Shown: positions 1,138 through 17,509, counted from the stretch's first letter. The stretch is 24,317 nucleotides of DNA from Kofleriaceae bacterium (GCA_033763475.1 JANRKM010000012.1:1-24317); one strand, 5' to 3'. Translations and numbers: made by a program. The notes: generated by a model from the sequence alone, not told the origin.

Positions 1138-2136
1138 GTGCTGCGCATGGCGCGAACTAACGGGCGATTTTCAACGCGGTGCGGAGCTCGTGGTAACCGC
1201 GAGACGCCGTTCTTGCGCGTGGAGAACAACCAGGTGACGGATCTCGTCGAGGTCGAGACGCTCGATCACGTGTTCGTGCAGCTGCGGCTGTCGTATCGCG
1301 TGGACTTCGAGGGTGACCCGCTGCGGTGGTTCAACGTCGAGAACCACGTGAAGTTCCTGTGCGACCACGTGCGCTCGGTGCTGAAGGGCAAGATCCGGAA
1401 GGTGGCGATCGAGGCGTTCTATGCGTGCTCGACCGACCGCATCCGCGATCTGATCCTCGGCGTCCCGGCGGATGGTAAGCGCCCGGGGCTGCCGTTCCCC
1501 AACGGCATGCGCATCGTCGATGTCGACGTCCTCCTCGACGAGGCGCTGCTCGACCAGAGCCAGCACGAGGTCGTGCGCTCGAACATCGCGATGTCGAACC
1601 TCGGGCGCGAGCTCGCGGTGACCAAGCAGCGCGAGGCCATCGCGCGCGAGACCGCCGAGGTGAAGGCTCTCACGGCCGTTCGCCACGACGAGCTCTCGCG
1701 CGAGCTGGCCGCGAGCGAGCTCGCCACCGTGCTCGCGAAGCTGACCAACACGTTGCGCGAGACCGACGAGCGCAAGAAGGTCGTGGAGGCGGAGCAGACG
1801 ATCGAGGTCATCAAGCTGGAGAAGCGACTCGAGCGCGTGAAGCGCGAGCGCGAGCAGGAGCTGACGTTCTTCTCGCGCGAGCAGGACAAGCGCATCGAGC
1901 TGCTGCGGGCCGAGGCCGAGACCGCCGTCCAGCGGTTCACGGCAGCGTCGGGCAACTTCAGCGAGGCGCTGCTCCAGCTCGGCCGGCACGAGACGCTGGT
2001 CAAGGTCGCGCAGGGGTGGGGTGTGCAGCGGGTGATCGAGGGCGAGTCGCTCGGCGATACGCTGTCGCGGTTGTTCAACCACACGCTGCTCAAGCCGCTC
2101 GTTGACAAGCTCACGCTTGGCGATGAGACGGACTAA
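1138..2136 (+). CDS. SPFH (band-7 / flotillin / vault-shoulder-like) domain protein with a long C-terminal coiled coil
   Basis: The segment HVRSVLKGKIRKVAIEAFYACSTDRIRDLILG...MRIVDVDVL matches the C-terminal half of SPFH domains. It is followed by about 150 aa of heptad-like E/R/K/A-rich sequence. The N-terminal beta-strands of a full SPFH domain appear to be absent. Exact start is uncertain. Confidence 0.4.
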   Translation: MLRMARTNGRFSTRCGARGNRETPFLRVENNQVTDLVEVETLDHVFVQLRLSYRVDFEGDPLRWFNVENHVKFLCDHVRSVLKGKIRKVAIEAFYACSTDRIRDLILGVPADGKRPGLPFPNGMRIVDVDVLLDEALLDQSQHEVVRSNIAMSNLGRELAVTKQREAIARETAEVKALTAVRHDELSRELAASELATVLAKLTNTLRETDERKKVVEAEQTIEVIKLEKRLERVKREREQELTFFSREQDKRIELLRAEAETAVQRFTAASGNFSEALLQLGRHETLVKVAQGWGVQRVIEGESLGDTLSRLFNHTLLKPLVDKLTLGDETD

Positions 2137-2697
2137 CGAGGAAGCTCGGCGATCGCGAACGCGACGCCGGGCACCAAGCGCGGGCGCGCCACGTCGCCAT
2201 CGCGTAGCGTGTGCATGGTGGCGTAGTCCGTGGCTGACAGGTCCGTGTAGACCTCGATCGTCATGTTCTTCACGTTGACGATCCAGTACTCGGGCACGCC
2301 CGCCTCTGCATAGATCTCGAGCTTGGTCCTGCGGTCCTTGCGGAGCGAGGAGTTGCTGACCTCGATCAGCAGGAGCACGGCGGTGGGATGCCCACGCGGA
2401 CGATCCGCAGGCACGATCACGAGGTCAGGCTCGGGCTCCGACCATTCACTGGCCGCGAACGGCAGCGCAGGCCGGACGTTCAGCGACGGCTCGATGCTCC
2501 GCACCAGACGGTTCGTCAACCACTCGACGATGTCGCCGTGGGGCTCTCCCTGCGGACTCATCGCGACGATGACTCCGCAGCAGCTCCACCTTGTCGGACT
2601 TGCCGAGGATGCCGACCTCGACCATGTGGTCGTACTCGGCGCGCGAGAGGGGTCGCATGGCCTCGACGAGCTCGGGATCAACCATCGCTGACAGCAT
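2133..2697 (-). pseudogene. Uma2-family (DUF820) putative endonuclease, interrupted by a +1 frameshift near 2575–2595
   Basis: The N-terminus MLSAMVDPELVEAMRPLSRAEYDHMVEVGILGKSDKVELLR is in the frame of ORF 2446..3315. The rest of the protein is in the frame of ORF 2133..2744: VIVAMSPQGEPHGDIVEWLTNRL...PDLVIVPAD...VLLLIEVSNSSLRKDRRTKLEIYAEAGVPEYWIVN. Together these make a complete Uma2 signature (GEL..MSP..HG; PDL...E..S.S....D...K...Y...GV.EYW.V). Removing one base at 'cggAgtc' restores the frame. Confidence 0.6.
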
Positions 2698-2767
2698 ACA
2701 GCCTCCATGCGGCCGCGTCGGGTGCGTCCTGCGTGCCCGCGCAAGCCGTGAGAACCACATGCGGGCG

Positions 2768-2849
2768 CGTCCGGAGCGTTCCGATCTCGGACGGGCTGTC
2801 CGGTAACCGGACATCTTGTGCAAGTTGGTGAGTGTCCGGCGTTCGGACA
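2768..2849. promoter_or_regulatory. Divergent intergenic region carrying two 17-bp palindromes 36 bp apart, plus a flanking CGTCCGGA/TCGGACG inverted repeat: a candidate operator pair. The palindromes are TGTCCGGtaaCCGGACA at 2797–2813 (perfect) and TGTCCGGcgtTCGGACA at 2833–2849 (one mismatch).
   Basis: The palindromes were read directly from the sequence. They lie between the Uma2 start (2697, minus strand) and the lipoprotein start (2998, plus strand). Their centres are about 3.4 helical turns apart. Confidence 0.5.
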
Positions 2850-2997
2850 ATAGTGCCGGGGCCACTGGTCGCGGCATCTCCAAAGTCGAGTGCCTTGTCC
2901 CGGTCATGGGGATTCCGGCGACATGGCCGGAAATGTCGGGGGCAAAGCAGGCCTTTGCCGGCATTGTCCCTGGCTGGCATGGTCTATCGTCCACGCG

Positions 2998-4368
2998 ATG
3001 AAGAAGCTGCTTTGTCTCGTTACGTTGATGGCGTGTAGTGACCCGAGCGAACAGCAGCCGGTCGATGCCCCCTCCGGGGATGATAGCCAGATCGTCACCG
3101 ACGGACCGACCGACCGGCCCGTTACGGTGACGGTCATGGATGAGGGCGTCGGCGTCGCGGGCGTCAGCGTCTACTTCCAGCAGCCGGACCATACGGTCTT
3201 CACGAAGGTGGTGACCAACGCTTCGGGTGTGGCGGCCACCGTGGTCGCCGGCGGTGGCGCGGTCACCGTCGTCGATCCGTTCGCCAACAACACGCTGGCC
3301 GGAGCCCCGTCGCACTCGCTCAGGACCTACCTCGGGGTGCAGCCGGGCGACGAGCTCCTCGTGGTGGGTGACGATGACGGCGAGAACGCGACCGTGACGG
3401 TGACGATCCCGGCGATCAAGGACTTCGCCTTTGCCAATCTAGAGTCGTCGTGCGGCGGCACCACCCTCGAAGCGCTCACGGGCACCCAGGTCGAGCTCTA
3501 TGGCTGCGATGGCATGGCGGACCTCGTCGTCGTCGCGTACGACGAGCTCTCCAATCCGCTCGGCTACCTCTACAAGGCCAACGTCGCGATCACCGATCAG
3601 GGCACGGTGAACCTCGGCAGCGAGACGTACACCGCCGTCCCCAATGCGTCGTTCTCATACGCGAGCATCCCGGCGGCGTTCGGGAACGTGTTTGGTACCA
3701 ACACGCTCGTCTCTCCTCGCGGCACGATCTTCGCCACGACCTCCGGGTCCTCGCTCACCGCGGGCGCGGCCTCGGTCACGAAGCGACGTCCGCTGGTGAC
3801 GTCCACGACCTCGGTGCAGCAACTGGGATTCGATTCCGCGAGCCCGACGATGTCGGCGCACACCGTGTTCCACTGGCAACCGGCCGCGGCCGCGCACGCC
3901 TTCGACGGCACCGGCAAGTTCCTGCCCGACTTCACGGCGGCACCGAGCTACACGGCGGCGACCCGGCAGGTGTCGTGGACCTCGAGTGGCGGTGTACCGC
4001 CCGACCTCACATTCGTGTCGATCGACGCGGTCCGCAACTCCGCCGAAACGATGTTCTGGCAGTGGAAGCTGATCGCGCCCTACACCGCGACGACGTTGAC
4101 CCTCCCCGCGCTGCCCACGGAGATCGCGCAGTACGTGCCGCTTGCGACTGACTCGGTCGAGCTCGTCGAGCTCGGCGCCGCGAAGCTCCCCGGCGGCTAC
4201 GCGGCGGCGCGCCCGCTGTACTTCGCCAACCTGGACGGCCCCCCGATCACCGGCACGAGCGGCACGATCTCGCTGGTCTCCTACTCCGAGCCGAACACGG
4301 TGCGCACCACGGGACCGACGAAGGTCAAGGCCGCGATCAAGGCCAAGGCCCCGCGCGCCCGTCGCTGA
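2998..4368 (+). CDS. Large S/T/G/V-rich lipoprotein (hypothetical), predicted beta-rich. Track ORF 2890..4368; the likely start is ATG 2998.
   Basis: MKKLLCLVTLMACSDPSEQQ gives a signal peptide with Cys at +13 (lipobox-like LMAC). High GC3. Low-complexity T/S/V-rich body. K/A-rich C-terminal tail KVKAAIKAKAPRARR. Confidence 0.55.
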   Translation: MKKLLCLVTLMACSDPSEQQPVDAPSGDDSQIVTDGPTDRPVTVTVMDEGVGVAGVSVYFQQPDHTVFTKVVTNASGVAATVVAGGGAVTVVDPFANNTLAGAPSHSLRTYLGVQPGDELLVVGDDDGENATVTVTIPAIKDFAFANLESSCGGTTLEALTGTQVELYGCDGMADLVVVAYDELSNPLGYLYKANVAITDQGTVNLGSETYTAVPNASFSYASIPAAFGNVFGTNTLVSPRGTIFATTSGSSLTAGAASVTKRRPLVTSTTSVQQLGFDSASPTMSAHTVFHWQPAAAAHAFDGTGKFLPDFTAAPSYTAATRQVSWTSSGGVPPDLTFVSIDAVRNSAETMFWQWKLIAPYTATTLTLPALPTEIAQYVPLATDSVELVELGAAKLPGGYAAARPLYFANLDGPPITGTSGTISLVSYSEPNTVRTTGPTKVKAAIKAKAPRARR

Positions 4369-4525
4369 GCTTTCGTCACGTTCTCATCGACCTGCGTCGC
4401 TAGGGCTGCCGCGCTTCTCGAGAAAGAACGTGCGCTGCGCCGACGGCGAAGAACATCGCAACGTCTCGAGCAAGCGGCGCTGCACCCCCGGGGGCATCGT
4501 GCGCCACCAGTTCTCGTGGGGCGAC

Positions 4526-4631
4526 GAGGGTCAGACACTACTTCCACTACTAGCTGCTACTAGCTGCGCTGGTCACGCGAGTCGCTGTCCGGTGCCGGAC
4601 AAGTAAGTAGTGAAAGTAGTGTCTGACCCTG
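4526..4631. mobile_element. 106-bp MITE-like element or structured-RNA candidate with 24–25-bp terminal inverted repeats. Left arm gagGGTCAGACACTACTTCCACTAC, right arm GTAGTGAAAGTAGTGTCTGACCctg, one internal mismatch. The 56-bp loop contains a TAGCTGC direct repeat and the TGTCCGGtgCCGGACA palindrome (4586–4601).
   Basis: The inverted repeat was read directly. The arms are AT-richer than the surrounding DNA. The element sits in the non-coding gap downstream of the 2998..4368 gene. Confidence 0.5.
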
Positions 4632-4869
4632 CAGCTCCTGCAGCTCGTCGAGCGATGCCGAGCTCGAGGAGGTCCTCCGCGTCGCCGCGCACGCGCCGCG
4701 GGTGCCAGGGCGACTCGACGCCGGCTAGGGAATCCATCTCCGTTCTATGGTCCGCGCCGAGGAACACGACGCCGCGCTGGCCTGCCTCCAAGCCCCGGGC
4801 TGCGCGTGGAGCTCACGTCGACCGAGATCATGAGGGTCGCCGCGGGCGGCGTCGTGGGACGATGGGATC

Positions 4870-5376
4870 ATGAGCGTGGGCGTACCAAGATCGCTGGCGC
4901 GCGTCGCGCTTCTCCTCTTCGCGTGTGGACCGACAGAGCGCGCGAGTACGACGACACGACCGACGAGCCCAACGCGAGGGGCTGGACAGCGCAGCGCTCG
5001 GCTCGTCATTCAGACCACGTGGCACGAGCTCGAAGCCCCGCAGACAAGAGCACTCACCTCGGAGCTCGACGACTGCTTCGGTCGCGGGTTCAACCTCCAG
5101 GCCGTGCTCGATCGACTTCCCCGCGAGGGCCGCGATACCCTGCGCACGGCCGCATGCGCAGATCTTCACGTTTCCCGCCAAACTATACTGGGTGGCCGAG
5201 ATCCAGATCCCACTCGCGCTCGCCGGTGTCGTCCCGCGCCCATCGCGCAGCAGGTAATCGCAAGATCGCTTCGTGCTGCTTTCTGTAACCAGCTGCGCCA
5301 GCGCGTCGGCCGATGCGATCAACCGATTGCGAATCCGAGCCGAGGCAGGTCCTATCGGCTCGCGCATTTGTTGTAA
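4870..5376 (+). CDS. Possible small lipoprotein (MSVGVPRSLARVALLLFACGPTE...). Weak call, and the true 3' end is uncertain.
   Basis: Signal-peptide-like N-terminus with Cys at position 19. GC3 bias is good only over the first ~90 codons. The region has reduced GC, and the antisense ORF 4828..5427 is equally open. Confidence 0.2.
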   Translation: MSVGVPRSLARVALLLFACGPTERASTTTRPTSPTRGAGQRSARLVIQTTWHELEAPQTRALTSELDDCFGRGFNLQAVLDRLPREGRDTLRTAACADLHVSRQTILGGRDPDPTRARRCRPAPIAQQVIARSLRAAFCNQLRQRVGRCDQPIANPSRGRSYRLAHLL

Positions 5377-5493
5377 CGTGGTCACTCGTCGCATGTGTGG
5401 CGCTCGTGCAACGGCAACCAATGGCACCGCAGGTCGACGGCGAGATCACAGATGCACGGGTGCCTGGTGCGTAACTTGCTCGGGCACCGATCG

Positions 5494-6465
5494 ATGAAGC
5501 GTCGCGCGAGCGGAGTGATCCTCGCAGCGTGGCTCGTCGTGGGTTGCGCGAGGCAGCACCGCTACGTGAATCGCCCCGAGCAACCCGAGGAGGCCCTCGC
5601 CGCCGTCCAGCGCGAAGCGACCGAGCGCGGCCTGAAGCGCATCGGGCACCGTGCGTCGGCAGAGATCTATGTCGTCCCCGAACAGCGTGATCCGACGGGC
5701 TCACGATCCGTTTCGAGGGACGACGCGTCGTCGTGTACCGGATGGCCGTACTTCAGTCCCGAGCGATGTCTGTTCGTCCGTGCATTCCCGGCCACCGACG
5801 GTGGAAGCGTGGTCGAGATCGCGGGTGCGAACCTGGCGATCACCGAGGAGATGTTCCCCGGGGTACCGAGCCGGCGATTTGATCCCTTCCTCGTGCCACG
5901 CAAGCCGCTCGTCACGGACCTGAACATCCGCGTCGGAGTCGGGTCGTCATCGGAGAACGGCGTGTACCTCCGGATCGAGCCCGCGTTCTCCGTCGGCTGG
6001 CGAGTGCTCGAGTGGGGCGAGCGCTCGGCCCTCACGGGCGTCCGCACGGGCCTCATTCCTGGACTCGGCGTGGGCCTCGCCATGGATGCACGCGGCACCG
6101 CCCTGCGGCCAGAGCTCCACGTCGAGCTCGACCGGCAGCGCGCAGTCGATCCCGCCCCTGGCCGCACGATCCCACTCGGGCCCCGATCCGCTGTCGGGCT
6201 CTCGATCGCGGCGCTGATCGGCCTCGACGATGACCGTGGCGCGGTCGAGATTGGTGCGGACGCCCACGTCTGGCCGTGGGGCGGTGTGTTCGCGCGGGCG
6301 GGCTACGAGCTTCGATCGAGCTCGAACACGTACTTCGTGGCCGGGGTGCAGACCGACGGCGTCGCCACGGTGGTCGCCGCGGGCGTCTCGCTGCTGATCA
6401 TCGGCATCGTGTCGCTAGGTGACGTGGAGTGGAGCATTCCGTGCAGCCGATGTGAGAACCCGTAA
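5494..6465 (+). CDS. Hypothetical lipoprotein with a hydrophobic C-terminal segment. Track ORF 5395..6465; the start was chosen at ATG 5494.
   Basis: MKRRASGVILAAWLVVGCARQ gives a textbook lipobox, LVVGC. Strong GC3. The C-terminus VATVVAAGVSLLIIGIVSLG looks like a TM or anchor segment. Confidence 0.5.
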   Translation: MKRRASGVILAAWLVVGCARQHRYVNRPEQPEEALAAVQREATERGLKRIGHRASAEIYVVPEQRDPTGSRSVSRDDASSCTGWPYFSPERCLFVRAFPATDGGSVVEIAGANLAITEEMFPGVPSRRFDPFLVPRKPLVTDLNIRVGVGSSSENGVYLRIEPAFSVGWRVLEWGERSALTGVRTGLIPGLGVGLAMDARGTALRPELHVELDRQRAVDPAPGRTIPLGPRSAVGLSIAALIGLDDDRGAVEIGADAHVWPWGGVFARAGYELRSSSNTYFVAGVQTDGVATVVAAGVSLLIIGIVSLGDVEWSIPCSRCENP

Positions 6466-6488
6466 GCCGGTTCGCGCGGGCGCAGCCG

Positions 6489-6516
6489 ACAGCGCGGTCA
6501 ATTGCGCGCTGTCGCG
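6489..6516 (+). terminator. Perfect 10-bp GC-rich hairpin (CGACAGCGCG-gtcaatt-CGCGCTGTCG), 24 nt after the stop of the 5494..6465 gene. Terminator-like, but with no U-tract.
   Basis: Inverted repeat read directly. Its position is immediately 3' of a plus-strand gene. Confidence 0.3.
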
Positions 6517-6637
6517 GGCTTGGGCTTCGATCAGGCAATGGTAATAGGCGTTGTTGGTCTCGGCATCGGGCCGGGAGGCGCGCGGTTGCGCTCGCGATGA
6601 CCCTCATGCCGATGCAATGTCTAGAGGTTGCGTCGCT

Positions 6638-6692
6638 GCGTGTCCGTGCTCCGGACGCGATGTCCGGATGCCGGACGGACAGTCCGTCGACC
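6638..6692. repeat. Copy B of the palindromic GTCCGG/CCGGAC repeat. Contains TGTCCGG-atg-CCGGACG and CGGAC-a-GTCCG. It lies in a convergent intergenic region.
   Basis: Aligns with 5..62 (24-nt identical core). It sits between the 3' ends of the 5494..6465 (+) and 6842..7384 (−) genes. Confidence 0.7.
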
Positions 6693-6841
6693 CTGCGTGG
6701 TGAGGCGGCCGAAGCACCTCGCGCAGCACGTCCAAGCTCGGCGTATGCCAGCACGCGTGAAGCGCATAAGTGAAACTATGCGCCCTTGTTGCGCATCGGT
6801 CTCTGGCGCGAGACGCCATCGGCGTGACGAAAACACTACGC

Positions 6842-7384
6842 CTACGGGCTATCCATCATCCGCAGCAGCGCCGTCGTCGTGTTCCAGTTCCGGATCGTCA
6901 TCTGCTTGTAGACGGGGAGCGCCGCCACCTTGCCCATCCGGCTCTGCGTGCGTTTCGCCTCGAGCCGCGCGTAGTACAGCACCCCGCGTCCGGGCCACAC
7001 CTGGTCGACGCCGTCCTTGCGCGGCATCATCTCGGCCACCGCAGCCCCCGAGAGCGGCGGCATCAGGAACAGCACGTCATAGCGGTACTTCGCCGCCTGC
7101 GTGCCGAACCCCTCCGGCGCCTTGTCCACGATCGTGCGCATTTCGGACAGTGACCGCACGACCAGCGTCGCCTCGTACGCGAACGTCTTGGCGAGCATGG
7201 CCGCGATCTTCGTCAGGACGACGGCTTCTTTCGCGGCCGCCGAGAACACCACGTTGCCGCTCTGGATGTACGTGCCCACGTCGGTGAAGCCCTGCTTCTC
7301 GAAGCAGGCCTTCAGGTCCGTCATCTTGATCACGTTGTTGCCGCCGACATTGATGCCGCGCAGCAAGGCCACGTACCGCACCAT
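6842..7384 (-). CDS. DUF1697 family protein
   Basis: MVRYVALLRGINVGGNNVIKMTDLKACFEKQGFTDVGTYIQSGNVVF is the canonical DUF1697 N-terminal signature. The ORF is clean, at 180 aa. Its start codon is 2 nt after the stop of the upstream gene, so the two are translationally coupled. Confidence 0.8.
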   Translation of the reverse strand: MVRYVALLRGINVGGNNVIKMTDLKACFEKQGFTDVGTYIQSGNVVFSAAAKEAVVLTKIAAMLAKTFAYEATLVVRSLSEMRTIVDKAPEGFGTQAAKYRYDVLFLMPPLSGAAVAEMMPRKDGVDQVWPGRGVLYYARLEAKRTQSRMGKVAALPVYKQMTIRNWNTTTALLRMMDSP

Positions 7385-10460: not shown

Positions 10461-12464
10461 TTATGGTTCGGCGTCGTCGCTCGGCGTGACGTCGAACGGC
10501 GAATCCGACTCGACCTCGTCGGCGTCGTAGTCCCCCGTGTCGGGGAGCCGGCCGCGCTTGTTGGAGCCGAAGCCACCGAGGGCGCCGAACATCCCGCCCG
10601 ACGGCGTGCACGCGGCGACGGGCGCGGCCGGTAGCGCGCGGGCGGATCTGCGCAGCGTGCTGAACGAATGCCGCGCGACGGTGCCGTCGGTGCGGCCGAG
10701 GTAGATGTGGTCGCCCGCGAACACGAGGGACGTGGTGTTGGGCGCGGGCATGACGTCTGCGGACGATGCGCCCGGGCTCCACGCGACCAGCTTGCCGTCG
10801 GCGATCGCCGTGACGACGTCGCGCCCGTTCCACGCGATGGCCCGGTCCTGCGTGGCCTCGTGCGGGAACGCGAGCGAGGCGACGGGCTTGCCGGTCGTGG
10901 CATCCAGCACGGTGATGCCGCGCTCGTCGATGAACGCGACCCGCGCGCCATCGGGCGAGATGGCCGGGCCTTTGCCGCCGCATTCGTAGGGTGCCTCGAC
11001 GACGACCCGACGCTCGATCGCGTCGGCGATCGTGAGTTTGCGCGAGCCGTACATCGCGACGCGACGCCCGTCCGGCGTGGCGGATGCGTGGGCGTCACTG
11101 GTGAGATCCTCCGCGGGCGCCTCGGTGGCCCAGCGTTGTTTCAGCGTCTCGTCGAGCACGAACAACTGGCCGCTCGCCGTGTACCAGACGCCCCCGCCGG
11201 CGACCGGGCCCAGCTCGCGCACGAGGAGGCCGAGGCCGGTCCGGTCAGCGGACAGCGCGACATGATCGATTCGCGTCGCGCCGTGCCAGCGCTCGAGCAC
11301 AGTCTTGTCCCGCGGACGCAGCGTGAGCGCGACCAGCGTGACCTCGTCGTTCGTCGCGGTCGCCAGCACGTCGCGCGCGGGCCCGCCGAGCTCGATGATC
11401 GGCCGCGCGGTCTCGGTCGACCAGATCCACGCAGAGCCGTCGCCGAACGAGTGGGAGACGAGCATGCGCCCCGCGACGTCGAGCTCACGCACCTCGCCGC
11501 GCGTTCCCTCGATCTCTGCGAGCGGCTTCCAGTCGGAGGTGCGCCACAGATGCAACACGTTGTCGTTGCCGCCGAGCGCGAGCAGGTCACCACGCGGCGA
11601 CCAGGCGAGCGTGCGCACGTATGCCTGCGAGCCGCGCAGCGTGGTGACGGGCTCGCCGCCGGGCAGCGCGACCACGCGCACTTCCTCCTCGCACGCGATC
11701 GCGAGCCGATCGCTGGCGGCGTTGATCGCGAGTGCGCCTGGATTGCAGCTGAACGGCACCGACGCGAGGGTCTTGCCGTCGTCGACGCGGTAGACGTCGA
11801 CCTCCCAGTGATCGTGCTTGCCCGAGAACGTGCCGACGGCCAGCAGCGCATGGTCGGGAGACAGCCCGTAGATGCTCGTGTTGCCGAGCGCGAAGATGCG
11901 ATGGCGCTTGCCGGTCGCGAGGTCCCAGATGCCGACGGTTTGCTGCGAGCGGCCTGCGACGACCCACGTGCCGACGATCTCCGGCGACGCGTAGTGCCGC
12001 GAGTGCTCGAGGGCGATGCCCGGCTTGCGACTCGCGAGGTCGAACACGGTGAGCGGGGTCCCCTCCTCGCCGCCGACCACCGCGCGCGTGCCGTCGGAGG
12101 CTACGCGCCTGGCTGCGACTGCGGTGAATGGCGTGGTCTTTCCCGTGCGGACGTCGACGACGACGGGCTTGTCACCGGCGAGGAGGAGCGACTGCGCATC
12201 GAGGAACGCCACGCCGCTGGTCCACGGGAGCAGGCCTTCGGCCACCACGCGGCGCCTGCCGGTACGATCGAACGCGACGACCGATCCGCCCGCGGTGGTG
12301 ACGATGACGTCGTCACCGTGAAACCCGATGTGCTCGAGCGAGCCCGGCACGCGCCACTCCTCGGCGCCGAATACGGCGGCCACCGGATCGCGCTCCGGCG
12401 ACGAGGTGACCTGCGCGCTACCGCACGCCAGTAGGGTCGTAGATACGACGACAGCTCGCAGCAT
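10461..12464 (-). CDS. Lipoprotein with WD40-type beta-propeller repeats. Track ORF 10461..12773; the start was chosen at MLRAVVVSTTLLACG (12464).
   Basis: Signal peptide with lipobox LLAC. Multiple WD-like repeats: LAWSPRGDLLALGGNDNVLHLWRTSD, VSHSFGDGSAWIWS, ALSADRTGLGLLV and others. Strong GC3. The overlapping antisense ORF 10668..12434 was rejected. Confidence 0.65.
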   Translation of the reverse strand: MLRAVVVSTTLLACGSAQVTSSPERDPVAAVFGAEEWRVPGSLEHIGFHGDDVIVTTAGGSVVAFDRTGRRRVVAEGLLPWTSGVAFLDAQSLLLAGDKPVVVDVRTGKTTPFTAVAARRVASDGTRAVVGGEEGTPLTVFDLASRKPGIALEHSRHYASPEIVGTWVVAGRSQQTVGIWDLATGKRHRIFALGNTSIYGLSPDHALLAVGTFSGKHDHWEVDVYRVDDGKTLASVPFSCNPGALAINAASDRLAIACEEEVRVVALPGGEPVTTLRGSQAYVRTLAWSPRGDLLALGGNDNVLHLWRTSDWKPLAEIEGTRGEVRELDVAGRMLVSHSFGDGSAWIWSTETARPIIELGGPARDVLATATNDEVTLVALTLRPRDKTVLERWHGATRIDHVALSADRTGLGLLVRELGPVAGGGVWYTASGQLFVLDETLKQRWATEAPAEDLTSDAHASATPDGRRVAMYGSRKLTIADAIERRVVVEAPYECGGKGPAISPDGARVAFIDERGITVLDATTGKPVASLAFPHEATQDRAIAWNGRDVVTAIADGKLVAWSPGASSADVMPAPNTTSLVFAGDHIYLGRTDGTVARHSFSTLRRSARALPAAPVAACTPSGGMFGALGGFGSNKRGRLPDTGDYDADEVESDSPFDVTPSDDAEP

Positions 12465-12515
12465 GATGCCCGGCGAGTATCGCCGAGCCAGGGCCTCGGG
12501 CGGTACATCACATCG

Positions 12516-12800
12516 GTGACCATCTGGCAGTTCTCGACGCCACCGACCCAGCCGCGCTCCCCCGAGGTCGTCCTCGTTGCCTTCGGACGCGGCCCGCTCA
12601 CCGGTCCGCTCGAGCTGCCCGCGGCCGCTGCCGAGCTGTGCGAGCTGCGCACCATCGATCGGCGCGTCGCGCCCGACTGGTTCGATGCCTGGCGCGGCGG
12701 CTCGCTGCGCGCGATCGCCGAGAAGGACCTCGGCCCGCAGCTCGCCGACCTCGACGCCAGCGATCACGCGCACGTGATCACGAGCGCCCCCAAAGCACCC
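12516..12800 (+). CDS. Possible small protein or gene remnant (…DWFDAWRGGSLRAIAEKDLGPQLADLDASDHAHVIT…). The 3' end is uncertain because it runs into the palindrome-rich 12782..12886 segment.
   Basis: High GC3 in this frame between 12516 and about 12790. No recognisable family. It is divergent from the WD40 gene with only ~50 bp between the starts. Confidence 0.2.
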
Positions 12801-12886
12801 GCTGACCTCGGCTACCTATGCGCATCACTTTCGGAGCGCCCAGGTGGATCAGTTTGGGGGCGCCGGAATCACCTGGCTGGGCGCGG
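12782..12886 (+). promoter_or_regulatory. Interleaved palindromes in the leader region upstream of the YARHG gene. Stem 1 is GCGCCCCCAAA (12784–94) with TTTGGGGGCGC (12853–63). Stem 2 is GCGCCCAGGTGG (12836–47) with CACCTGGctGGGCGC (12870–84). CTATGCGCATCAC sits in the loop of stem 1. This gives a pseudoknot-like topology.
   Basis: Read directly. The 5' arm of stem 2 lies inside the loop of stem 1, and its 3' arm lies downstream of stem 1. The whole segment is ~130 nt upstream of ATG 13013. Confidence 0.4.
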
Positions 12887-13012
12887 TGGAATAGCCAGAT
12901 GCGGCAACACGTTCCGATGAGTGTCGAAGGCCGCCGTCCGTGCGCTCGTGTCCGGGTGCTCCGACGCGCGTGGTACGTTCGCGCTTGCTCGCACACGTCA
13001 CCCGGGTAACCC

Positions 13013-14394
13013 ATGAGAAGCGTGCTCCTGTTCACGTCGCTGGTCCCCCTCGCCGTGGTGGATGCGGCAAGTCCGATTCGACACGGTCCGCCTCCCCCCC
13101 GGGCGCGACGAGCCCGGCCATCCCGTCGGCTGGGACCGCCGCGCCCGCGGCGCCCGCGGGCACGGAGCCGAGGTTCGATCCGGCGACGATGTGCGAGTCG
13201 CGATGCCTCCTTTTGACCCAGCATCCGCTGGGCAACCTGGCCTTCGGAAACAGCTACTGCAAGGCCTGCGGCGACCGCGATCCGAAGGCCTGCGAGGGTG
13301 TCACTCCCTTCTTCGATTCCAACAGCTGTGCGGAGGCCGACGAGCTCAGGAACTGCATCTACGCGGCCTACGGCAACCCCTTCAAGAAGCCCAAGTGGCA
13401 GAAGCACTTCGCCAAGGAGCCTTGGTACAAGCCGAACCCCGCGTTCGACGAGTCCATGCTCTCCAAGGTCGCGCGGCAGAACGTCACGGAGCTGAAGAAG
13501 CTGGGGTGCACCGCGGTGCGCGCGAAGGCCAACGACGGCACCCCCGCGCATCCGTTGAACGAGCGCGGCGGCTGGAGCCTGCGCGAGGATCTCGACGGCG
13601 ACGGGATGCCGGAGAGCATCGAGGCCGAGAAGGCGCAGCTTCGCGTCGGGGAGCGGACGACCGAGACCGGGCTCGAGTCGTGGGACTACGAGAACGGCGA
13701 CATCTTCATCGTCGACCTCGACCGGTCCGACAAGCTGCGGGAGGTCGCCATCCTCAGGCGCGGCGACGACGACTACGCGGAGACGACGTTCTACCGCTAC
13801 GCCGACGGGAAGCTCTGGTCGTTGGGGGCCGTCGAGAACTGGGTGCAGCCCGGCGAGCTCGCGGGCGACGGCACGGTGAGCGAGACGTCCGGGCAGTGCG
13901 GCGTCACCCTCGTCGTGCGGTACGCGATCAGGAAGGGGGAGCTTCAGGAGATCGAGCGCAATGAGACGGGCAAGCGAGAGCCCGACTGCGAAGAGTCGGC
14001 GTGCCCGCACGTCTTCGTCGCGCAGGCGGACGGTCGTTTTCGCTACGTCGGCGAGATCCTGCGTGACCTCGTCGGATCCTCCGCGCGCGCCCGTCAGGCG
14101 CTGCCCCTGGCTGCGGCCGACGCCCATGACGGGAAGATCGTCGTGCGGATCTCCGAGCGCGAGAGCGAGACCACGTTCCTCGACGACATCTACCTGTCGG
14201 TAGGTGGCGTCCGAGTCGCGCCGAGCGCGTGTGCAGCGGGTCCCTCACCGTCGCCCCCCGCGGAGTGCGTGTCGGATGGGCTCATGCGACGCCTCGAGTA
14301 CGGCGACGACTTGCTCCTCGAGTTCATGGTCGGCCGTGTGCCCCACCGTGCCGAGGTGACGCTCTGGGGCACCGGCTACTATGTGCGGCGGTAG
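13013..14394 (+). CDS. Secreted YARHG-domain protein. A frameshift at a C7 homopolymer (13094–13100) separates the signal peptide from the body.
   Basis: MRSVLLFTSLVPLAVVDAAS (ORF 13013..13216) is a signal peptide. With one extra C in the C7 run it continues in frame as GPPPPPGATSPAIPSAGTAAPAAPAGTEP...MCESRC… (ORF 12940..14394). LRNCIYAAYGNPFKKPKWQKHFAKEPWYKPNPAFDESMLSKVARQNVTELKKL matches the YARHG domain consensus (lRNeIyARhGy.F....w...F....WY.pn). Confidence 0.6.
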
Positions 14395-15070
14395 CGTGCC
14401 CGGCACGGCTTCCGCGACCGCGGGGCGTGTCCGCGGTGGGCTCACCCTCATCCTCGTGGCGTGGATCGTCGACGCGATCGCCGGGGGAGCGCTCCGCACC
14501 GCGGAGCACGTCCTCCTCGCGGAGTTTCACGCGCACCCCGAGAGCGTGGCGCATCCGTCGTCCTGGTTTCCCGTCATCGATGCCGGGCAACTGGCGATCT
14601 ACCTCGCGGTCACGGTCATGCTGTGCGTCGGGATCGCTCGGATCGCCGGGCCACGTGAGTCGTCCCTCGGCGCCGGCGTGGCACGTGCCGCCGCCACGCT
14701 CCTCGTGGTCGACGCCGTCGCGGGCACCATGTGGCCGAGCGTCGCGGCCCGCATCCTCTCCGTCGACGCGATGATCAGCGCGATGCGCGTCGCCGGAATC
14801 GTCGGCGTGCTCAGCCGCGGCACCGCGCTCGTGTTGCTCGCGCTCTTGCTCCGGGTGGGGGCGCGACGGATCGGGCGCGACGTCGACACGCTCTCCTCTG
14901 CGACCGTTGGGTTGGTGGTCGTCAACTCGATCGTACGGTGGCAGATGAGCTCGCTCGAGACGCCGCTCGTTTGGGTGCTCCTCGAAGTGACGTGCGCCGG
15001 TGTGGCGCTGCTCTTCGTCTTGATCACCGTGCGGCTGCGGCGCGCCCTCGCCGCGACCCCCGGCACGTAA
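14381..15070 (+). CDS. Hypothetical polytopic membrane protein with about 5–6 TM helices. The start may be GTG 14396.
   Basis: Successive hydrophobic segments: LTLILVAWIVDAIAGGAL, LAIYLAVTVMLCVGIARIAG, AAATLLVVDAVAGTMW, VAGIVGVLSRGTALVLLALLL, VWVLLEVTCAGVALLFVLITV. The antisense ORF 14324..15214 is Arg/Asp-rich noise. Confidence 0.45.
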   Translation: MCGGSVPGTASATAGRVRGGLTLILVAWIVDAIAGGALRTAEHVLLAEFHAHPESVAHPSSWFPVIDAGQLAIYLAVTVMLCVGIARIAGPRESSLGAGVARAAATLLVVDAVAGTMWPSVAARILSVDAMISAMRVAGIVGVLSRGTALVLLALLLRVGARRIGRDVDTLSSATVGLVVVNSIVRWQMSSLETPLVWVLLEVTCAGVALLFVLITVRLRRALAATPGT

Positions 15071-15131
15071 GCTGGATACGCCGCGTTCGAGCTCGTCCAA
15101 CCGCGGCCGCAGGGCGCCTGAAGACGAGGTC

Positions 15132-15687
15132 ATGATGAACTCTCCGAACAGAATTCTCCCGGTCTTGGTGCTGGTCGTTGGCTGCTGGAGGCAGGGGGGC
15201 CGGTTCGCGCCCAACGCCGAACGCGCCCGCAGCGGGGGGCGAGCGCGTCGAGCCGACCCTCCTCGAGCCCGGTGACCGTGTGCGCGTCGACCTCGACGCG
15301 GACGGCACTGCCGAGTTGGTCGAGCTCGATGCGGCCGGCCAACTGCACATCGATGGACAGGCCATCACGTGCCGAGGCGCGCTGACCCACGAGCTCATCG
15401 ACTTGGATCCGAGGGACCCGCTCATGGAGGTGTGGGCCTACGCCGAGCTCGGCGACGACGATTGGGTGAACTGCTACTTCACGAAGGCCGGAGGGGGCGT
15501 CGACCAGCTGGAGCTCGCGCGGACGGAGGTCGACGATGAGGGCCGGATCCTAGACGCCGGCACCTGCTACAGCCCGCCCGGCGCCTACCGACACACGGCC
15601 AAGGGGTTCGAGGCCGTCAAGGACGCCGAGGCCGTCGGCGAGTTCGAGCCGGGAGCCGACTGTTGCGAAGGCCCCGACTGTCCGTGA
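15132..15687 (+). CDS. Lipoprotein with a frameshift at a G6 homopolymer (15194–15199). Cys-containing C-terminus …GADCCEGPDCP.
   Basis: ATG 15132 encodes MMNSPNRILPVLVLVVGC, a lipobox VVGC, in frame 0. The body (track ORF 15178..15687) is in the +1 frame. Deleting one G from the G6 run joins them as ...VVGCWRQGAGSRPTPNAPAAGGERVEPTLLEPGDRV…. Confidence 0.45.
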
Positions 15688-16480
15688 CTCGACGAACGGC
15701 CGCGGGGAGGCGAGCTGCGCGCGAGCGAACGTCCAGCGCGCGCACCATGGGCGAGGCCGCGCGCGGTACAGAGTGACCCTCCGAGGATAGGAATTTCAGG
15801 CTGCGCGCCGTGATCCGCGGAGGAGCGTCGGCCACCCTCGATGGCGCGCGGACGGGCCGCTGGACGGCCGGACTCGGGCGCGACAAGGCGTAGGGCAGCT
15901 CACGCTTCGTGCCGTTCGGCGCAGACGGGTCCCCTCCCCTTTTCGACCGGCCATCTCAGGCAGGGTCGTCGGGGGCGGGGGGATCGCCGTCGTGCCGGGC
16001 CCGCGCGGCGGCGGGAGCTGGTCGAACTGACCAATCGCCTCCCGTAAAACGGGGACGGCTATTCGCTATGCGCATCTAAGGGCCCTCGAATCCGAAAGTT
16101 GATCGAGCACGCACGATTTCGGATCGACAGGATCGCCCGATCGTGATCTACAGATCCTCTGAAGCCCGAGGCCCTCATCCGCACGAAATTCAACGCGCTC
16201 AAGGGCTCGATGGATGAGCGCATGACGCGGCTATGCGCACCCCGAACCCGAGCTATGCGCTATGCGCTGCACCTCGCCCAACACGAACATCGGCTCGAAC
16301 CACGGCCACACGATCTCGGTCACGCTCGCCGGATAAGGCTGATCACCGGTCGGGGCCGACCACGATCATCTCCGGTGGGGGCGACGGGGCCGACCGCTGC
16401 GCGCCCGCTGTCGTCTCGCGTTTCCGCGGAGGCTGCGCCGCTGCACCGCCGCGCGTGATCTCCGCGCCGCCCCCGCCGCC

Positions 16481-17509
16481 TCAACGTGGGTTGGCGACGC
16501 TGGCGATGAAGAGGCGCGCGCCGTTCACCCCGGGTAGCTCGAGCTCCTGGGGCTGCGGTCCTTCGGTCATCAGCTGGGAGAGGCGGTTCGTCAGGGGCTC
16601 GATCGCCTCCGGCGGTAGGAAGATCACCGCGCCGCGCATTCCTTCTCGCTTCTCGATCGACCACCCGGCCGGGCCGGGGCGGAAGCAGACGAGCGAATCG
16701 CCGCTGCGTGGTCCTCCGAACAGAACCATCTCCTCGCCGTGACGGACGCGGTGCTTGATTGCCATCAGCAGATCGGGGATGCAGGCTAGGTCGACGTGGA
16801 TGTCCAGCCGCTTGCCCCGGACCAGCCCCCCGTGCACCTCCCAATGCAGCGGAAGCTGGCCGCGCATACCGACCGACGCCGCTCTGCTCGCCATCGCTCG
16901 CTCCATGTCGACGAGGAAGCTCGCGTCGGCGAGGAAGCTGGGGCGTCCCGCGATCGTCTGCAGCAGCGGATCGCGCGCCCTCATCAGGTCGGAGAACGCG
17001 AGCACGTCCCATGATCGCGCCGTGTCGTGTTCGGCCACGTTCACGCCGACCATCTGCAGGTAGCCATGGTTGCCGTTGCGGGATCGGGTGGGGGCGAGCC
17101 CGACGTCCTCCACGAAGAGCACGTTGCAGATTTCATCGCGGGTAGCCGGCGCGACCAGCGGCATGCAATGCCCGGAACCGATGAAGGTCTCGGTCGTCGC
17201 CAGGTAATCGCGGATGCCTTGCATCCAGTGGAGCACCCATCCGAAGTCGAGCTGCGCCTCGACGGCGGGGATCCGACAGCTGAGCTCGAAGCCGAAGCCG
17301 GACACGTCGGGGTCGTCGGACTCCTTGTCCCAGAGCTCGGTGAAGCCCTGGCTGACCACCAGCCAGTGCGGGCTCGGCGCGCTCACGTGGACCGCCACCG
17401 CGCCGTTTAACGGCTCGGCCCCCTCGACCGGCGCGCACAAGACGATCTCCGCGCCCGGGTGCGCGGCGCGCACGCTGTTCTCCAGGGCGTCGAAGGGGTC
17501 CACGGTCAT
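16481..17509 (-). CDS. SUFU (suppressor-of-fused) family protein, bacterial type. These are frequently immunity proteins of polymorphic toxin systems.
   Basis: HVSAPSPHWLVVSQGFTELWDKESDDPDVSGFGFELSCRIP…WVLHWMQGIRDYL matches the bacterial SUFU core (HYVTYGLSELY.KESDDPE.SGFGFELTFRL…LARYVF). It is a clean 342-aa ORF with good GC3. Confidence 0.6.
   Translation of the reverse strand: MTVDPFDALENSVRAAHPGAEIVLCAPVEGAEPLNGAVAVHVSAPSPHWLVVSQGFTELWDKESDDPDVSGFGFELSCRIPAVEAQLDFGWVLHWMQGIRDYLATTETFIGSGHCMPLVAPATRDEICNVLFVEDVGLAPTRSRNGNHGYLQMVGVNVAEHDTARSWDVLAFSDLMRARDPLLQTIAGRPSFLADASFLVDMERAMASRAASVGMRGQLPLHWEVHGGLVRGKRLDIHVDLACIPDLLMAIKHRVRHGEEMVLFGGPRSGDSLVCFRPGPAGWSIEKREGMRGAVIFLPPEAIEPLTNRLSQLMTEGPQPQELELPGVNGARLFIASVANPR

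Follow-up and report, generated by a model that had tools for sequence, protein, structure and literature searches.

What do the palindromes lying between a Uma2-family gene and a lipoprotein-type gene in a Kofleriaceae genome do, and which of the two genes do they serve? We studied them within the window, which spans an entire contig (24,317 bp, 68% GC) from a metagenome-assembled Kofleriaceae genome, and compared it with related loci, numbered here with the prefix L. From this comparison of sequences, we consider the palindromes most likely to be upstream activator sites for a sigma-54-dependent promoter directed to the left, along the minus strand, at the Uma2 gene.

Palindromic units and the probable promoter element facing Uma2

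The palindromic units occupy a 300-nt gap between two divergent genes. To the left lies the Uma2-family gene (2133-2698, minus strand), which encodes a PD-(D/E)XK nuclease-like protein and has candidate ATG codons at 2698-2696 and 2685-2683. To the right lies the lipoprotein-type gene (2998-4368, plus strand), with its ATG at 2998 and an N-terminus reading MKKLLCLVTLMACS. The original prediction placed two palindromes, one perfect and one near-perfect, with their centres 36 bp apart, between a frameshifted Uma2 gene and a lipoprotein gene, and the sequence bears out both the palindromes and their location. Unit B2, TGTCCGGtaaCCGGACA (2797-2813, minus strand), is a perfect 7-3-7 palindrome centred on 2805, at about -93 from the predicted start site. 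Unit B3, TGTCCGGcgtTCGGACA (2833-2849, minus strand), is the distal palindrome, centred on 2841 at about -129, and carries one C-to-T change that leaves a G.T pair. The neighbouring gene matches Pfam Uma2 with E = 6e-29 and switches frame near 2575, since tblastn with the intact 184-aa orthologue P0006 aligns to 2685-2575 and 2576-2145 in different frames. The frame switch, at 2570-2580, reflects either a pseudogene or an assembly error.

A further inverted repeat had been described just upstream of the two palindromes. It is present at 2768-2793 (CGTCCGGA...TCGGACG), though not as a separate feature: it is a conserved composite unit belonging to the same family, and we refer to it as B1. On the minus strand B1 reads CGTCCG-agatc-GGAACG-ctc-CGGACG, in which a unit whose right half-site is weak comes before an additional right half-site. 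As the proximal unit it is centred at about -73 relative to the predicted start site, and its additional half-site lies at about -58. A unit in general consists of the half-sites (T/C)GTCCG and CGGAC(A/G), 11 bp apart. With up to two mismatches allowed, the pattern TGTCCGGNNNCCGGACA occurs six times in the window against a mean of 0.26 in dinucleotide shuffles, none of which (0 of 100) reaches six. The centres of B1 and B2 lie about 20 bp apart, or two helical turns, and it is these two units that form the conserved pair. The 36-bp step from B2 to B3, taken originally as the key spacing, is off the usual 20-21 bp register, and B3 is specific to the window contig, being absent from the orthologous loci L211 and L212.

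Downstream of B1 on the minus strand comes a spacer (2739-2767, minus strand; cgcccgcatgtggttctcacggcttgcgc) that measures 30 nt when the G after CCGGAC is included. This length belongs to the commonest class in the family (28-31 nt), and the spacer sequence resembles those of L193, L210 and L174 (..GGTTtCGCG..GTTGCGC). The spacer leads into a sigma-54-type element, GGGCAC-gcagg-ACGC (2738-2724, minus strand), with its GG at 2737-2736 and its GC at 2725-2724. Compared with TGGCAC-N5-TTGC, the element has the GG-N10-GC and the GGCAC core, while T-26 is replaced by G and TT by AC. Using a promoter matrix built from 37 array-linked sites, we obtained a score of 5.8 for this element, a value near the 90th percentile for random stretches of 200 nt; no other candidate lies near the units, and this one stands at the canonical distance from them. 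Given the weak -12 and the matrix score, the case for the window promoter rests on position and conservation rather than on strength. The predicted start site falls near 2712 (minus strand), and a GGAGG ribosome-binding site (2706-2702, minus strand) precedes the ATG at 2698. The complete order on the minus strand is thus B3, B2, B1, the 30-nt spacer, GG-N10-GC, GGAGG and ATG.

The region just past the -12 element contains one half of a 22-nt direct repeat (2706-2727 and 2758-2779, 86% identical), which is also visible in L211. The minus-strand stretch at this point, ACGCACCCGACGCGGCCGCATG, echoes the end of B1 and the start of the spacer (ACGCTCCGGACGCGCCCGCATG). This repeat copy may act as a weak extra half-site over the start site.

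In the mechanism that we propose, each unit would bind a dimer of a predicted NtrC-family AAA+ enhancer-binding protein with a C-terminal helix-turn-helix, and on two or three neighbouring units these dimers would come together as the active hexamer. Since the proximal unit ends 30 nt ahead of the -24 element, the activator, once bound, would be kept on a fixed helix face, from which it would contact RNA polymerase carrying sigma-54 at GGGCAC-N5-ACGC and drive open-complex formation. We infer that protein binds at the units and that its effect is an activating one; the inducing signal would plausibly be DNA damage or nucleic-acid stress. The 24-kb contig contains no rpoN gene and no gene for an enhancer-binding protein (GAFTGA). 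Sigma-54 activators are encoded in relatives, RtcR in L211 and an FHA-type protein in L217, and we assume that the sigma-54 machinery is present in the genome of the window as well.

The regulatory target of the units, as predicted from this arrangement, is the Uma2 gene only. The lipoprotein-type gene appears to be a neighbour only. A homologue of this gene is found in a 21-kb locus, L121, that contains no palindromic units, and the promoter matrix scan finds no -24/-12 element facing the gene in the window. On these two grounds, we rejected its regulation by the units. The gene has a sequence of its own that is shared with a homologue: GGTCTATCGT is located 7-10 nt before its ATG (window 2975-2997) and is common to the 50%-identical homologue in L121 (9960-10000), where an ECF sigma-factor gene lies divergently upstream. 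GGTCTATCGT may be the -10 element of a leaderless or ECF-type promoter.

Orthologous Uma2 loci and the condition of the window copy

We fetched the orthologous Uma2 loci L211, L212, L214 and L215 by protein similarity alone, independently of the motif. L211 carries an intact Uma2 gene with 89% amino-acid identity to that of the window, on a 536-kb contig, and the identity in L212 is 74%; L214 comes from Kofleriaceae and L215 from Myxococcales. All four loci have a distal unit, a composite proximal unit and a spacer of about 30 nt. The consensus of the composite unit in these orthologues is CGTCCG-N5-xGGAxx-N3-CGGAC(G/A), and the same composite architecture as in B1 is also seen in L020. An equivalent of B2, (C/T)GTCCG-N5-CGGACA, is found in L211, L212, L214, L207 and L124. 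The GG-N10-GC is kept in three of the four protein-fetched loci, with no clear one in L215. The -12 element varies: L211 has GGCAC-N5-CCGC, and the corresponding tetranucleotide is ACGC in L212, CGGC in L214 and GTGC in L020. A GGAGG-N4-ATGCTG block is conserved in L211, L212 and L214. Uma2 genes are also found downstream of arrays of units that were retrieved by DNA pattern (L207, L124 and L020), with the same layout as in the window.

The comparison with L211 further shows what has happened around the window copy. In L211, the Uma2 gene is followed by a gene of 237 aa, a vault-like (MVP) gene of 831 aa, rtcB and then rtcR. In the window, the 237-aa gene between Uma2 and the vault-like gene is absent, and the vault-like (MVP_shoulder) gene is reduced to its C-terminal 317 codons (1201-2130), which are 92% identical. 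In L211 (region 11461-16894), the vault-like gene lies directly downstream of rtcB and beside rtcR, an unusual position within an RNA-repair operon.

Units recur in three further non-coding stretches of the window. Array A (5-55), with two or three units, opens the contig, and its promoter, if it has one, would fall beyond the contig end. It is a paralogue of array C (6641-6681, minus strand), which has two units between convergent genes; the two arrays have the exact 24-mer CCGGACGCGATGTCCGGATGCCGG in common and are about 88% identical over about 50 nt. The third stretch contains a single unit, D (TGTCCGGtgCCGGACA, 4586-4601), with a 2-nt centre. An nhmmer profile made from 13 other cassettes (arrays with their promoters) matches array A and, on the minus strand, arrays B and C, at E-values of about 1e-4 to 2e-4, with individual values of 9e-5 for A and 1.7e-4 for C. 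At array C, a cGGCAT (about 6611-6606, minus strand) follows 29 nt on, but the -12 position reads TCAT, not TTGC. The promoter matrix finds no valid site at array C and none near arrays A and D. In array C we probably see an orphaned or decayed version of the promoter cassette. Counting against the sigma-54 reading are the weak -12 element facing Uma2, the promoterless state of A, C and D, the place of C between convergent genes and the off-register position of B3.

Two observations on these stretches stand beside the main question. Array C is directed at the 3' end of a gene (5395-6465). Unit D sits in the middle of a 100-nt inverted-repeat element (4529-4629) that resembles a MITE, with 16-nt terminal inverted repeats (GGGTCAGACACTACTT and AAGTAGTGTCTGACCC) and internal CTACTAGCTG repeats, and this element is located in a 1-kb stretch (4369-5394) without a convincing gene.

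In this contig, then, a single cassette that appears intact precedes a damaged gene, alongside orphaned copies of the array, and the Uma2 locus looks partly decayed in view of its frameshifted Uma2 gene, truncated vault-like gene and promoterless array copies. The Uma2 frameshift and the shortened vault-like gene mean that the window copy may be non-functional. A reading in which the palindromes are enhancer sites by descent, now a dead relic within a decaying Uma2 cassette and regulating nothing, builds on this damage, on the missing 237-aa gene and on the orphan state of C and D, with the -12 GC lost in C. We consider it unlikely, though it is the alternative that survives best. B1, B2, the spacer, GG-N10-GC, GGAGG and ATG of the window are all intact and about 89% identical to those of the intact locus L211, and the frameshift could be an assembly error, as the genome is assembled from a metagenome. 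Moreover, the ACGC form of the -12 element is common to L212, and L211 has CCGC; the three closest orthologues have CGC in common, which indicates that the window variant is ancestral and not fresh damage.

Arrays in other genomes and their orientation to sigma-54-type sites

We also looked for arrays by DNA pattern in other genomes. A scan of species-representative genomes with CGGACGNNNTGTCCGGNNNCCGG picked up two-unit elements in Kofleriaceae and Myxococcales; the matches listed were mostly chance ones, in actinomycetes, and about 10 Kofleriaceae/Myxococcales loci were informative. Metagenome contigs, scanned with a pattern in which 26 bases were specified, yielded 89 loci. By crude gene calls, 31 arrays lie in tandem, 8 in divergent and 5 in convergent gene contexts. 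All-against-all clustering of the flanking ORFs yielded no family common to more than 7 of about 100 loci. We therefore rejected a conserved partner such as a transposase, a regulator or a partition protein, given that no flanking family is more widely shared and that genes for enhancer-binding proteins are not found next to the arrays with any consistency.

In many cases TGGCAC-N5-TTGC comes after the array, and the arrays have a strong orientation relative to sigma-54-like sites, which we defined as GG-N10-GC with four of the six other consensus positions matched. Among 89 non-redundant arrays, a site of this kind that points away from the array stands within 150 nt in 37, and one that points toward it in 4. 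When only high-GC arrays with complete 100-nt flanks are considered, sites point away in 33 of 132 flanks and toward the array in 1 of 132, against a background of 3.2% (binomial P of about 3e-20). Positions that were not part of the filter also fit the sigma-54 consensus, with G after TGGCAC in 23 of 37 sites and T after GC in 30 of 37. Measured between the last unit and the T of TGGCAC, the distances group at 28-31 and 38-44 nt, and further distances are found near 51-53, 61-63 and 72-77 nt, in steps of about one helical turn. About half of the arrays found by pattern have no detectable -24/-12 element, and some of those without one lie in predicted phage contigs.

This geometry bears on the type of regulator. 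In the original prediction, the palindromes were read as tandem operators for a repressor that binds cooperatively. Under such a model, a dimeric repressor would close one or both of two divergent sigma-70 promoters. The notion of tandem dyad sites for several protein dimers in a promoter region holds up in our reading; the repressor does not, and we consider it very unlikely. Dyad-symmetric sites in a gap between divergent genes are what such a model expects, and a half-site-like sequence, ACGCACCCGACG, occurs just downstream of the -12 element, within the direct repeat at 2706-2727 and 2758-2779. Some enhancer-binding proteins, PexR for example, also repress at other promoters (PMC12754779). 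However, a scan of 2600-3100 finds no sigma-70-like promoter that a repressor could overlap; the consensus used was that of E. coli, which has limited weight in a 68% GC myxobacterium. In addition, the units lie at about -58 to -129 relative to a -24/-12 element, which is an activator geometry, and in dozens of loci arrays stand at a fixed, helically phased distance upstream of such elements. The divergent arrangement is itself not conserved and is peculiar to the window contig: the gene that ends immediately ahead of the distal unit in L211 and L212 is co-directional. L121, the locus with the lipoprotein homologue, lacks units. Set against this repressor model, the activator reading is the one to which we hold; within it, we infer both the cooperativity of the units and the sign of their regulation.

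Could the palindromes act through structure instead? The presence of copies in four non-coding places first suggested a REP-like repeat, that is, hairpins for mRNA stabilisation, termination or use as transposase targets, and we rejected it for its low copy number in long related loci, its orientation and its uncompensated stems; of all the readings considered it is the least probable. The units do share with REP/BIME elements that they are short GC-rich palindromes clustered in non-coding DNA, with paralogous copies within the contig: there are four clusters in 7 kb, of which A and C are paralogous and one lies between convergent genes. The loop of the window units varies among 2, 3, 4 and 12 nt, many pattern matches are at contig ends, and the stretch with the units, taken as single-stranded DNA, folds with z = -3.95, although strong folding is to be expected of any palindrome. 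The arrays differ from REP/BIME elements in being low in copy in those loci, in being oriented and phased upstream of promoters, and in having half-sites that are conserved without maintenance of the stem. In long related loci there is usually one array per 10-14 kb, and a low copy number of this kind fits a regulon and not a genome-wide repeat. The variants CGTCCGC..CCGGACA in L211 and CGTCCGG..GCGGACA in L212 break inner or outer pairs without compensation yet keep GTCCG and CGGAC, albeit in a small sample. In long-loop units the half-sites stay one extra helical turn apart, and composite units keep a half-site one extra turn away. Half-sites retained without stem compensation, and their location upstream of the start site, speak for a protein that recognises duplex DNA rather than for a role as hairpins. 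Finally, no T-tract or intrinsic terminator is found in 2600-3100, the scans produced no Rfam match and no tRNA, and no Y1 (RAYT-type) transposase is among the Pfam families listed for genes flanking the arrays.

A number of arrays look different from that of the window. Contigs catalogued as viral (L134/L219, L154 and L198/L221) have arrays of 3-7 identical TGTCCGGAAACCGGACA or TGTCCGGTTTCCGGACA units, with a lower GC content and no sigma-54 promoter nearby. These arrays may represent a different use of the palindrome, for example as iterons or a centromere-like site. In the viral collection, the true pattern has 3 matches against 0 and 1 for scrambled palindromes, numbers too small to carry weight. 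A group of syntenic contigs (L141, L142, L143, L161, L162, L179 and L196) encodes a weak match to a Rep_1 / G2P-like replication protein and has two-unit arrays in two separate intergenic gaps; this group is possibly an integrated rolling-circle element.

A candidate recombination-repair regulon and its nearest known relatives

The genes that follow the arrays give the feature its wider interest; taken alone, it is a regulatory site of an ordinary kind. The first genes downstream of array-linked promoters encode RadC (4), RecA (3), PriA (2), Uma2 (2) and a ChlI/ComM-like protein (1), and an HHH_3 protein is also among them. The cassette precedes recA, radC, priA and Uma2-family genes in many Haliangiales and Polyangia contigs. 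We fetched three recA loci (L216, L217 and L218) by protein alone; the RecA of L164 is closest to Haliangiales/Polyangia proteins. The recA gene of L216 is preceded by units and by GGGCGC-N5-TTGC at the canonical distance, and that of L218 by three units with GGGCAC-N5-TTGC 42 nt on. L217 has units in front of recA but no clear promoter.

We tentatively propose, with the odds somewhat against us, that Haliangiales/Polyangia run a sigma-54 recombination-repair regulon comprising recA, radC, priA, the neighbourhood of the 5'-3' exonuclease or ComM gene, and Uma2, under one undescribed activator that would have the window palindromes among its targets. This activator would recognise tandem (T/C)GTCCG-N5-CGGAC(A/G) at about -64 and -85 and, in some cases, at -106 as well. 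LexA is the classical repressor of recA, and it would be unusual for recA to have a promoter that requires both sigma-54 and an ATP-dependent activator; the regulon, if it exists, would parallel the LexA SOS system but be driven by an activator. Uma2 nucleases, which are poorly understood, would gain a physiological context from it, and with a defined motif and a fixed promoter geometry the question of the regulon is directly testable.

The units resemble the sites of known NtrC-family activators, such as TGCACC-N5-GGTGCA for NtrC, TGT-N10-ACA for NifA and TGTC-N10-GACA for GlrR/QseF. In both cases two or three dyads stand on a fixed helix face tens of bp upstream of GG-N10-GC, and both have TGTC/GACA-type half-sites; our unit reads TGTC-N9-GACA or TGT-N11-ACA. 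Unlike the known sites, the units described here lie unusually close to the promoter, with the centre of the proximal one at about -64 to -73. A CRP-family site of the MrpC type (GTGTC-N8-GACAC) was considered and set aside, as the spacing of the unit is N9 rather than N8 and the sigma-54 context fits better.

The closest published parallel that we found is also from a myxobacterium. At the sigma-54 promoter of katB in M. xanthus, the enhancer-binding protein PexR binds a tandem set of three interrupted palindromes located upstream (PMC12754779). This arrangement is like that of the window, whereas the PexR palindrome is CACCG-N6-CGGTG and its regulon serves peroxide defence, not recA, radC, priA and Uma2. 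In the literature searched, the coverage of which was incomplete, we found no description of the (T/C)GTCCG-N5-CGGAC(A/G) motif or of a sigma-54 regulon of recA, radC, priA and Uma2. A 2025 survey reports that COG2003 (radC) is enriched among computationally predicted sigma-54 targets (PMC12316311). LexA-independent responses to DNA damage in myxobacteria are still being worked out; DdiA has been described, and several sigma-54-dependent regulators change in abundance after mitomycin C (PMC12288472).

Another system of potential relevance is the rtcBA promoter, which is controlled by RtcR, depends on sigma-54 and responds to nucleic-acid damage. In L211, rtcB and rtcR lie 3.4-5 kb from Uma2, and this vicinity suggested RtcR as the protein that binds the units. 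We rejected this candidate, as the gap between rtcB and rtcR in L211 contains no unit; in contrast to the cassettes, the rtcB promoter region of L211 has CGGATAAGCTATTATCCG instead. No rtcB is found among the genes downstream of arrays. In the rtcR-rtcB gap of E. coli K-12 (NC_000913.3; L213, locus 5081-5268), CTCCGGTTACGGACG is located about 60 nt before the sigma-54 promoter of rtcB, TTCTGGCACGACGGTTGCA. The E. coli CTCCGGTTACGGACG resembles one unit of the window motif.

In the cassette-bearing recA loci L216 (1-2856), L218 (1-1075) and L164 (309-1053), a 5'-3' exonuclease gene is repeatedly divergent from recA, and a ComM-like (ChlI/Mg_chelatase) gene lies nearby. In L217, a gene for an FHA-domain sigma-54 activator (5442-7146) is found 1.3 kb downstream of the unit-carrying recA. 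Ser/Thr protein kinase genes are divergent from radC at L047 (2231-4768) and L150 (6983-9532), and it is possible that the FHA-type activator and the Ser/Thr kinases are signalling partners.
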